Origin: Candidatus Hermodarchaeota archaeon
Lineage (GTDB): Archaea; Asgardarchaeota; Lokiarchaeia; Sigyniarchaeales; SOKP01
Assembly (NCBI GenBank): GCA_048885925.1
Contig: JBHLLG010000002.1
Location: forward strand, 77,569 to 141,568
Direction of reading: 5' to 3'
Length of the DNA stretch: 64,000 bases
Part shown: in pieces, positions 38,572-40,637 of the stretch
How positions within the stretch are numbered: position 1 is the stretch's first letter
Layout: the number at the start of each line of letters is the position of its first letter
The notes under the pieces: generated by a model
Databases searched by the model: none
What the model saw: the letters and a program-made list of their open reading frames with translations, nothing else
Told to the model about the DNA's origin: nothing
Translations under genes and position numbers: made by a program

Positions 38572-39060
38572 TTAGAGAGATCTCTGCATCCAAATTATAT
38601 CAAAAGTCCGTCCAAACTTTTTAGCAATATTTTTAAATCTTCCACATTCAATAAAACCATGTTTTTTATGGAAATTTAGGCTTTGCTCATTTAAAGAGGA
38701 TAAATGAATAAAAAGTAAACGGACTCCATTTTCATTGGCATATTCAATTAATTTATTTAATAACCTTGTACCAAAACCTTTATTAGTATATTCTGGTTTA
38801 ATAAAATAGCTTATTTGTCCTGTATGCATGAAATTATCATAAGGTAAATAATTTTTTATAAATGCAAAACCACTTATTTTCTTTTCAATTTCTAAAACGA
38901 CAAATGATAAACATTCTTGACGTAATTGACTGATAAAATTAATTTTAACTTCTTTTTCAGAGTAAGCAGCAAAACCATTTAAAATATAATTATTATAAAT
39001 TGAAAGAACATCGTTTAAGTCTGAATTTTTAACTTTCCTAATTCGAAATTCAAAAGCCAT
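38572..39060 (-). CDS. GNAT N-acetyltransferase (YncA/Pat-like)
   Basis: IYNNYI, KGFGTRLL, NEQSLNFHKKHGF..CGRF...KFG..DIIWMQ. Confidence 0.9.
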   Translation of the reverse strand: MAFEFRIRKVKNSDLNDVLSIYNNYILNGFAAYSEKEVKINFISQLRQECLSFVVLEIEKKISGFAFIKNYLPYDNFMHTGQISYFIKPEYTNKGFGTRLLNKLIEYANENGVRLLFIHLSSLNEQSLNFHKKHGFIECGRFKNIAKKFGRTFDIIWMQRSL

Positions 39061-39135
39061 AATAAAATATTAAATAAATTAATTTTTTGAAGTTTTACAT
39101 TTTAAATAAAATAGAATTAAAAAAATGAAATATAT

Positions 39136-39208
39136 AATCCTAAGACCTTTGCATGGTTGTCCTTAAGCATCTCGTTTTTTCATACTTAATTCATTCTTAA
39201 TTAGGATT
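39136..39208 (-). promoter_or_regulatory. Eukaryote-like SECIS element in the 3' UTR of the Prx-like selenoprotein
   Basis: mRNA after the stop: GA AUGAA UUAAGUAU GAAAAAACGAG AUGCUUAA GGAC. This gives an AUGAN/NGAN core, an 8-bp helix and an A-rich apical loop (39159-39194). Outer helix AAUCCUAA (39201-39208) pairs with UUAGGAUU (39136-39143). Confidence 0.8.
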
Positions 39209-39724
39209 TTTGATATATTTATCAATTAGGAGTAACATCGCACTTACTGAAGGTCTGTCTGTTTTATCTCTTCCTATGTATTTCCATACAATTGTCCCAT
39301 TTTTATCTATTAAAAATTTGCTCGGTACAGCTTGTTTTACTTTAAGTTTTCCCCAACCTTCTGCAAACCAATACACATTATAATCCTTAGCTATTTTAGC
39401 TCCACGGTCTGAAATCATATCTACTGGAAATTTATTTTCTTCTTTAAACTTTCTTAGTAATCCAATTGTGTCGCTTGCAATTGAAATAACTTTAACATTT
39501 CTTTTTTCAAACTCATGAAATTTTTTCGTTAAATTCTCTAGTTCTTCTTTTCAATAACTTCACCAAGTACCACGAAAAAAAACAATCAATACTGCATTAT
39601 GATTTTGAATGAGATTAGATAAATTAACTGGATTACTAAATATATCTACTGTATTTATCAAAGGTGCTTGAGTATGCAATGATAATCCCCTGGGTCTCAT
39701 TTCTTCTTCTTTCTTTAAAGCCAT
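39197..39724 (-). CDS. Peroxiredoxin-like (AhpC/TSA, thioredoxin fold) selenoprotein with a UxxU motif, 175 aa
   Basis: ATG 39724 with SD GAGGT. The frame reads ...VLIVFFRGTW-TGA-SY-TGA-KEELENL..VKVISIASD..FPVDMISD..PSKFLIDKNGTIVWKYIG..DRPS. The TGA codons (39560-39562, 39551-39553) occupy both Cys positions of the F.RG.WCP.C motif. The track shows only the last 73 aa. Confidence 0.92.
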
Positions 39725-39976
39725 TTGGTTATTACCTCAAAACTAATTACACTACAATTTTTCTTACAAATATTGATAAAAATTATAATTTTAAAGATAT
39801 GTTTTTCGAAAGATGATAAGAGTAATTTAAAATGTTAGGTTTTTCTAATAAAATCAAGAAATAAAATAGAAATAGCAGTTCTTTCATTAGATGATTATCA
39901 AGATTCTAAAAAATACTGCCAAAATTCAGAAATTGTAAAAATTGTAAATAAAAAGTGACATAAAAATGTAATAATA

Positions 39977-40501
39977 TTAAGTTCCGAATTTTTCAAAAAG
40001 AACTTCTGTCAAAACTTCAAATGCTTTTTCTACGTTTTCTCCAGTTTTGGAAGATAGTTCTACAAAAGAAGCTAAATTATACTTTCTTGCAGCTAATATC
40101 CCATCATCTCGAGGAACAGCTCGAAACTCATATAAATCCAATTTAGAGCCAATCAACATTATAGGGATGTCACCGGAATGTTCTCTAATTACTTGAGTCC
40201 AATCGGGTAAGTGATCTAATGAGGTTTGATTAGTGATATCATATAAGAAGAATGCTCCATTTGCCCCTTTACTATATTGTGAAAGTAGAAATCGAAACCT
40301 TTCTTCTCCACCAAAATCCCAAATCTGTAATTTTACTTTTTTATCTTTAAAATAAGTGGTCTTAGAATAAAAATCAACACCTATAGTCAATTTGAGGTCT
40401 TCCATGAAGTATCCTGAAATATATCTCATTGTAAGGGATGTTTTACCCACTGATGCATCACCTAACATCATGATTTTAAAAGTATAATCGTAATCTGTCA
40501 T
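39977..40501 (-). CDS. Rab-like small GTPase
   Basis: YDYTFKIMMLGDASVGKT, TIGVDF, KLQIWDFGGEERFR, SKLD, SSKTGENVE. Confidence 0.93.
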   Translation of the reverse strand: MTDYDYTFKIMMLGDASVGKTSLTMRYISGYFMEDLKLTIGVDFYSKTTYFKDKKVKLQIWDFGGEERFRFLLSQYSKGANGAFFLYDITNQTSLDHLPDWTQVIREHSGDIPIMLIGSKLDLYEFRAVPRDDGILAARKYNLASFVELSSKTGENVEKAFEVLTEVLFEKFGT

Positions 40502-40637
40502 TACTTTCAACAGTAAAGGTATTTTAAGGACTTTCTTCGAGTTTTAAAAATAAATTTTAAAATTATTCTAGTAATATACCCAATATTAATTAATTTTTAT
40601 CTATTTTAAAATTATTATTTTCCAAAAAACACAAAAA

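Follow-up and report, generated by a model that had tools for sequence, protein, structure and literature searches.

The hairpin that abuts the stop codon of a two-UGA gene in the window (the whole 64-kb stretch of DNA that was analyzed) is very probably the SECIS element of a Lokiarchaeal (Promethearchaeota) PrxL mRNA, of the lokiSECIS or type I kind, which would recruit the selenocysteine (Sec) machinery for both UGA codons. The direct evidence consists of the fit of the sequence, the conservation and covariation of the stem, the association with UGA-containing genes, and the genes of the machinery.

The PrxL gene and the element at its 3′ end

The gene lies on the minus strand. Translation with table 11 breaks its ORF into pieces, while reading TGA as Sec (U) restores one frame of 175 amino acids, with the redox box GTW-U-SY-U and no Cys elsewhere in the translation. 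In Pfam, the protein matched AhpC-TSA (88.6 bits) and Redoxin (72.4 bits), and in an alignment U55 and U58 corresponded to the CxxC cysteines of a bacterial homolog. Mariotti et al. (2016; PMC4989117) described in Lokiarchaea a Prx-like family, PrxL, whose redox box contains one or two Sec and which is otherwise free of Cys; judged by its predicted product, the window gene is a two-Sec Prx-like selenoprotein gene of the PrxL.1 type, as this type appears in their text. Upstream of PrxL, the minus strand carries as its next gene a 177-aa ORF (39977..40510) in which a small-GTPase P-loop, GDASVGKT, and a switch II sequence, DFGGEERF, were read by eye.

After the UAA codon of PrxL, the mRNA (minus strand) runs in the order GA, AUGA, AUUAAGUAU, GAAAAAACGAG, AUGCUUAAG, GA and C. 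The coordinates of these and other features are collected in Table 1. The original prediction had placed here, 2 nt after TAA, a hairpin AUGAA...GGAC with an inner helix of 8 bp including one G-U, together with an outer 8-bp helix that uses the last codons of the gene and encloses the stop codon. The mRNA reads exactly so. The inner helix (helix II, UUAAGUAU/AUGCUUAA) has 8 standard pairs, one of them U.G, and its arms extend to 9 nt with an A.G at the base; the outer helix (helix I, AAUCCUAA with UUAGGAUU) has 8 Watson–Crick pairs, encloses the stop codon and covaries among relatives. The UGA contained in the AUGA core is in frame with PrxL and constitutes a second stop. Both presumed Sec codons had been located about 360 nt away, and the measured distances from UGA55 and UGA58 to the AUGA core were 368 and 359 nt.

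RNAfold recovered helices I and II, plus a small third hairpin (helix III) located past the GA core and before the 3′ arm of helix I; this third hairpin, which is conserved, had been overlooked in the original prediction. The folding energy was unexceptional with respect to shuffled sequences (55 of 200 shuffles folded as well) and, because z was only -0.66, energy alone would not pick out the hairpin. Nor did curated SECIS models, to which the original prediction had looked for support, recognize it: at the gathering threshold, Rfam gave nothing in the whole 64-kb window and, at a loose threshold (E<=10) in 38900-39900, it gave no SECIS family and only three chance-level matches. This outcome is consistent with the published failure of standard SECIS tools on Loki and Asgard elements (PMC4989117, PMC11227280).

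Table 1. Coordinates of the PrxL gene, of the parts of its 3′ element and of the tRNA-Sec candidate.
Feature	Position	Strand	Basis or detail
Predicted PrxL-type (Prx-like thiol:disulfide oxidoreductase) selenoprotein gene (CDS 39724..39200; stop UAA 39199-39197)	39197..39724	-	translation, Pfam, alignment
Two putative Sec codons, UGA55 (39562-39560) and UGA58 (39553-39551)	39551..39562	-	translation
Helix I, 5′ arm AAUCCUAA; final CDS codons N173, P174 and part of N175	39201..39208	-	sequence, RNAfold
5′ junction U-UAA-GA-AUGA: stop codon, then SECIS core (GA spacer 39196-39195 between UAA and core; AUGA 39194-39191)	39191..39200	-	sequence, orthologs
Helix II, 8 pairs plus A39190.G39162, with 11-nt apical loop GAAAAAACGAG (5′ arm UUAAGUAU 39189-39182, preceded by A39190; loop 39181-39171; 3′ arm AUGCUUAA 39170-39163, followed by G39162)	39162..39190	-	sequence, RNAfold, covariation
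3′ core GA and conserved C (GAC)	39159..39161	-	GA 39161-39160, C39159
Helix III, mini-hairpin ACC-AUGCAAA-GGU, between GA core and helix I 3′ arm	39145..39157	-	RNAfold, RNAalifold
Helix I, 3′ arm UUAGGAUU, non-coding	39136..39143	-	sequence, RNAfold, covariation
Seven-U run just 3′ of the element	39119..39125	-	sequence reading
tRNA-Sec candidate, anticodon UCA	C8:83730-83804 (L048:1462-1585)	+	Rfam tRNA-Sec model and reading

Conservation, covariation and the three-helix form

Among 60 related genomes, a PrxL match at E<=1e-10 was found in 33, the window's own counted, and at least one in-frame TGA was present in each of the 47 related places listed. The 34 tblastn matches examined, in 30 loci, gave a set of 32 close genes in 28 loci from relatives within the genus, with 58–99% identity. 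The redox motif of these genes is UxxU in 7 and UxxC in 25, with the frame kept. In every case the element was found at the end of the CDS, and at most one of its 8 inner stem pairs was missing. The AUGA is invariant (32/32), and the 3′ core is GAC in 31 elements and AAC in the other one. The apical loop measures 11 nt in 25 elements and 12 nt in 7; its last two nucleotides are AG throughout, extended to GAG in 31 of the 32. The gap from stop codon to AUGA is 2 nt in 25 genes, 5 nt in one and 20 nt in another one, and in the remaining five the UGA of AUGA doubles as the stop codon. The core UGA is in frame in every PrxL gene; this reflects shared descent and hence is not independent evidence.

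The covariation that the original prediction had expected at the 3′ ends of orthologs was found. Changes on both sides occur in 7 of the 8 pairs of helix II in the 32 PrxL elements, although the aligned sequences are kin and such counts overstate the independent events. The cells of the 32-row alignment are paired to 93.4% in helix II and to 90.2% in helix I, where the pair 31-97 is CG in 26 sequences, UG in 3 and UA in 2, and where the CCU/AGG of the window is among the double changes. For the whole structure, 90.9% of the cells are paired, versus 27.7–56.6% when the partners are slid, and the covariation score is 0.338, versus 0.180 for shuffled alignments, with none of 500 shuffles reaching 0.338.

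Helix I was also analyzed in a mixed set formed by 23 non-PrxL elements and the window's element, in which the 3′ core is GAC in 23 of 24. The sequences of helix I differ widely in this set (ACCGAA/UUCGGU, ACCCCU/AGGGGU, AUAUCAA/UUGAUAU and others) and its pairing is kept, with both-side changes in 6 of the 8 pairs; the overall covariation is 0.519, versus 0.216 shuffled. Because the pairing persists across non-PrxL elements, the helix that encloses the stop codon is real and its support is independent of the coding constraint of PrxL.

Helix III is present, directly 3′ of the GAC core, in every element and has a conserved consensus, ACC-YUGCRAR-GGU. In the PrxL set, CC/GG is nearly invariant and the closing pair covaries, being AU in 21 elements, GU in 5, CG in 3 and UA in 1. 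The whole 3′ segment of the internal loop, GAC-N-ACC-YUGCRAR-GGU, is strongly conserved across families in the window's genus, and an element of another genus has the stem GGUC/GACU with the loop, UUGCAAA, unchanged. Because of the position of helix III, the element is modelled as a three-way junction composed of helix I, the 5′ junction with the stop codon and AUGA, helix II, GAC and helix III. The scope of this three-helix model is the window's genus plus the one element of another genus.

Distribution of the element, alternative readings and Sec machinery

A covariance model (R1) was constructed from 30 orthologous elements, with the window's copy and one truncated copy left out. In the 64-kb window it gave a single match (39130..39210, minus strand, 87.8 bits, E 2.9e-19) and, in the 3.9-Mb genome to which the window belongs, 5 matches at E<=1 among the best 150 of 4429 candidates. 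It also matched 13 of 13 Promethearchaeota loci gathered separately, some of which duplicate R1 training sequences, with 19 strong matches of 68–95 bits, the window's own counted. In five genomes of other genera (best 150 candidates each) there was one match, in one genome, and two of the five carry UGA-containing PrxL-like genes at which no element was found.

The genome of the window is a MAG of 3.9 Mb and 29% G+C, 95% complete, and its elements were located by means of R1 and two pattern scans. The first pattern scan returned 14 matches, 5 of them with the full architecture; the other 9, which lack it, were set aside as chance. As foreseen in the original prediction, other selenoprotein genes are followed by elements. 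These are three FlpD/MvhD-type (MvhD/VhuD) genes with 2 U each, according to Pfam; a gene for an HdrA-like flavo-iron-sulfur protein with 2 U; a VhuU-like 49-aa ORF with the motif DCULSCAAH, in which the stop is the core UGA and the 3′ core is AA, as published for VhuU; and a gene for a Sec-containing SelD (176.7 bits, one TGA), with a longer AUGA element 8 nt after the stop. In a relative, an ORF with a C-terminus resembling that SelD (L082, G013:C5) has an element 11 nt after the stop; it is a type I three-helix element scoring 51 bits with R1, whereas the SelD element of the window's genome is longer and type II-like.

R1 gave no match at the loci of Cys paralogs in the same genome (L002, L003) or of bacterial Cys homologs (L074-L077); direct reading of the redox motifs covered L002 and L074-L077. 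The expected contrast between UGA and Cys orthologs stands for the close relatives, as 32 of 32 UGA genes have the element and the six Cys loci searched gave no R1 match, but it does not extend to three more distant genes that contain UGA and show no recognizable element. One of these (L004, C90:5822-6214(-), in the window's genome) is a distant thioredoxin-fold/PrxL-like gene with one in-frame TGA. The other two (L032 and L033, in other genera) are distant PrxL-like genes, also with one in-frame TGA each, that read GHY-U-VPC. At these three genes, no SECIS was found within 260 nt downstream with R1 or with a looser pattern; either they use another type of element or they are not selenoprotein genes.

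These data bear on the view that the hairpin is a mere 3′-end structure, such as a stabilizer or a terminator helper, with the UGAs being read in some other way. Its position would suit this role, at the end of the transcript and just before the seven-U run, which likely is an archaeal oligo-U transcription stop as far as its sequence indicates; T-rich tracts occur 3′ of the element in most orthologs. The folding energy, not being exceptional, would suit it as well. However, the core AUGA...GAC with an A-rich, AG-ending loop recurs after unrelated UGA genes (PrxL, MvhD/VhuD, HdrA-like, VhuU-like), and it was not found after the Cys homologs tested. In addition, the R1 matches in the window's genome (5 at E<=1 among the best 150 of 4429 candidates) are far fewer than its genes, and a bacterial-type scan, which together with its sigma-70 promoter part is uninformative for an archaeon, found no intrinsic terminators. 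So, a mere 3′-end structure is considered very unlikely, and the SECIS reading is preferred.

That the TGAs do not encode Sec, but reflect a pseudogene, an assembly error or the use of TGA for another amino acid, has in its favor the bare presence of in-frame stops and nothing more, and its probability is taken to be minimal. In 32 genes from other genomes, the frame remains open and conserved before and after the TGAs, whose positions are invariably those of the redox-box Cys. Of the sampled words of the stretch, 87–93% recur in DNA contigs of three additional samples taken in the same study; no RNA run was among those listed as containing the stretch. Moreover, TGA is not generally reassigned, because it also terminates MvhD and VhuU genes and the five PrxL genes mentioned above.

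Finally, it is hardly conceivable that the hairpin is another kink-turn RNA overlapping the gene end, e.g., a C/D-box sRNA or an L7Ae-binding element: the best loose Rfam match was to a C/D-box snoRNA family (RF00526, 21.5 bits, E 0.7), but its score is far under the gathering score of 50 bits, the D box (consensus CUGA) and the C box (RUGAUGA) are absent from the element, and a place fixed so strictly with respect to the stop codon (32 of 32 genes) is unexpected for an sRNA gene.

Concerning the Sec machinery, SepSecS is present in the window's genome (478 bits, above the cut-off; C8:83884-85185) and 79 nt upstream of it there is a tRNA-Sec candidate. The latter displays the anticodon loop CUUCAAA, a long variable arm and a discriminator G followed by CCA; its score is 34.1 bits, versus an Rfam gathering score of 47 bits. 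ARAGORN called no tRNA at this locus and, in the whole genome, it gave only 12 tRNA lines and no SeC. A 9-bp acceptor is formed, with one mismatch, only when its 5′ strand is taken from about 40 nt upstream of the model match; on account of this displaced strand, the gene seems to carry an intron, which would sit elsewhere than the T-loop intron reported for Loki. About 6 kb from SepSecS and the tRNA candidate, on the opposite strand, there is an EFsec-like factor (region C8:76648-77568) that scored just below the bacterial selB cut-off (234.9 versus 242.25 bits), and a like placement has been reported for Loki. A search with TIGR03574 revealed no PSTK in this 95% complete genome (best score 26.6 bits), which may be due to a gap or to a divergent kinase.

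With the hairpin taken as a SECIS, its mode of action can be outlined. At the foot of the nine-position stem, the AUGA and GA strands would build a tandem G.A core resembling a kink-turn. By analogy with eukaryotic and archaeal 3′-UTR SECIS, this core could recruit, directly or via an adaptor, the Sec-specific elongation factor with Sec-tRNA(UCA), and the element would act on codons located about 360 nt upstream, so that both UGAs would be read as Sec. The UAA codon, which precedes the element by 2 nt, and the UGA within the core, also in frame, would be too close for recoding and would act as stops. Since helix I encloses the stop codon, the geometry suggests that, by the time a ribosome terminates on UAA, it would have unwound helix I and some of the core.

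With R1 at E<=0.01, the search of the genus gave 90 matches, spread over all 20 genomes with 3 to 10 in each. They comprise 5 in the window's genome, 21 at PrxL-type genes of the other 19 genomes and 64 remaining ones, of which 60 were inspected by reading the upstream frames by eye, the four weakest being left out; the Pfam scan of the genes with R1 matches covered the proteins of the window's genome. The 60 inspected elements follow MvhD/VhuD-type ORFs (24), small ORFs with one hydrophobic helix (17) or two (8), an ORF of about 300 aa (5), a SelD-like C-terminus (1) and unresolved frames (5).

The one-helix ORFs, of about 45–110 aa, combine a basic N-terminus and a hydrophobic helix with a linker rich in Gly and Asp; their single in-frame UGA often has a Cys nearby, and a full three-helix SECIS comes about 80–100 nt later in each case. 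The one in the window's genome (C11:36831-37073(+), equal to L037:1261-1503, with the element at C11:37071-37151) had no Pfam match, and its relatives are at L079-L081, L085, L086, L089-L092, L096, L097, L099, L100, L106, L110, L113 and L137. Some orthologous pairs keep frame and length past the UGA, e.g., L081/L091 and L079/L080, and four of the ORFs (L085, L086, L106, L113) end 1–2 codons past it. By their sequences, the one-helix ORFs are candidate new membrane-anchored selenoproteins. The two-helix membrane ORFs, of about 60–75 aa (L104, L107, L118, L122, L125, L126, L127, L130), have an in-frame UGA directly behind the first of their hydrophobic helices, in most cases as A-U-G or G-U-G, and their elements share the stem UUCCAAUAA/UUAUUGGAU; an ORF similar to this group, at L135, has no UGA.

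The candidate of about 300 aa (286/307 aa), a widespread and highly conserved Asgard protein, is found in the window's genome at C97:632-1552(-), equal to L038, with its element at C97:543-626(-), and has relatives at L112, L131, L132, L134, L136 and L138-L142. Its element is type II-like, with an 18–20-nt loop and a ministem, and lies 14–15 nt after the stop, as read in four of the six genomes. At E<=0.001, the database contains 387 relatives of this family. The 120 listed have 281–287 residues and start at MGFS, after the UGA, and the named ones are all 'hypothetical protein'. Before this annotated start, six genomes display GGAGG, which resembles a Shine-Dalgarno box, together with an ATA codon and a conserved peptide that includes one UGA (AT-U-N). 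This suggests that the annotation omits an N-terminal extension that contains Sec and begins, without AUG, at the conserved ATA. The seven Asgard selenoprotein families named in the text of PMC11227280 do not include the small membrane or the 300-aa ORF types, and no description of UGA ORFs of these types was found in a literature search. The small membrane ORFs and the 300-aa protein with in-frame UGA are unlisted selenoprotein candidates only.

Helix III and the covarying helix I provide a sharper, genus-wide structural model. Mariotti et al. did not find SBP2 in Loki, according to their text (PMC4989117), and helix III, with its loop YUGCRAR, could dock an archaeal SECIS-binding factor standing in for SBP2. 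Taken as a whole, the proposal that the SECIS of this genus is a three-way junction, that its helix III docks a factor replacing SBP2 and that the model, being very specific, exposes new selenoprotein candidates is a tentative one, which could well fail in one of its parts. The three-helix model could guide a first biochemical test of Asgard SECIS, directed at the binding protein and at the coupling between termination and SECIS unfolding, and it points to unannotated small membrane selenoprotein candidates that would escape homology-based surveys.

Comparison with known SECIS kinds

The original prediction had assigned the hairpin to a eukaryotic or Lokiarchaeal type rather than to a bacterial or Methanococcus one, and this assignment was borne out. 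A bacterial SECIS is a stable hairpin within the CDS, 16–37 nt after the UGA (PMC13188914), and no hairpin of this type was found after the PrxL UGAs (-6 kcal/mol, z -0.24). This result, together with the report of the papers that multi-Sec genes have one element each, agrees with the idea, also present in the original prediction, that a single element serves both UGAs.

Among Archaea, Sec has been shown by experiment in methanogens only, according to PMC9622424. The element and its genome resemble the Methanococcales/Methanopyrus system in the 3′-UTR site near the gene end and in the presence of SepSecS and of a putative tRNA-Sec for which a 9-bp acceptor can be drawn. However, the eaSECIS of those organisms is defined by a GAA_A bulge and, on top of it, a run of three G-C pairs (PMC11227280, PMC13188914), with a small loop, and the window's element has neither the bulge nor the run, its helix II containing one G-C pair.

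The likeness to eukaryotic SECIS comprises the AUGA/GA quartet, the unpaired As of the loop, the lower helix with an internal loop, the 3′-UTR position and, as a presumed property, the ability to serve several distant UGAs. The eukaryotic form has an AAR loop and a kink-turn bound by SBP2 or L30, of which the window shows the sequence motif. The helix II of eukaryotic SECIS is longer than the 8–9 pairs found in the window. Further differences are that Rfam SECIS_1 did not match at E<=10, that the element lies 2 nt after the stop codon and not far into a long UTR, and that the 3′ strand of its internal loop forms a hairpin.

The closest resemblance is to the elements described for this lineage. 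According to the text of PMC4989117, lokiSECIS consists of AUGA, a 9-bp stem, an 11-nt apical loop and GA (in rare cases AA), and adjoins the end of the CDS; the first positions of the loop prefer A and the last one is an ultraconserved G, mostly after A. The same text reports that lokiSECIS may overlap the CDS, with AUGA providing the stop codon in VhuU, and that UGAs too near the element act as stops. The window's element corresponds position by position to this description, given there for PrxL, VhuU and HdrA-VhuD; the ninth stem position is A.G in the window and, as far as that text goes, nothing else essential differs. Huang, Xiao and Zhang (2024; PMC11227280), whose survey covered over 400 genomes of Asgard archaea, counted prxL among five widespread selenoprotein families and described a type I eSECIS-like form as the major one for prxL, with a GA_[G/A]A core, an upper stem of 7–15 bp with at most 2 mismatches and a loop of 8–20 nt, features that are all present in the window's element. 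The shorter helix (8–9 pairs), singled out in the original prediction, the overlap with CDS or stop codon and the idea of a minimal distance are already in print in these two papers (PMC4989117, PMC11227280).

The element is of the published lokiSECIS or Asgard eSECIS-like type I kind, ordinary for its lineage and in print since 2016. Its recognition is a rediscovery, from raw sequence, of the published link between archaeal and eukaryotic Sec decoding, and adds no new kind. With respect to structural detail, the main text of PMC4989117 does not contain the words helix, lower stem, internal loop or three-way, nor does that text mention a lower helix or a 3′ mini-hairpin, whereas both are present in the window; the three-helix form, absent from it, may be new. 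Similarly, while the text of PMC11227280 reports no highly conserved nucleotides of the internal loop or lower stem across families, the 3′ segment of the internal loop is conserved in the window's genus.
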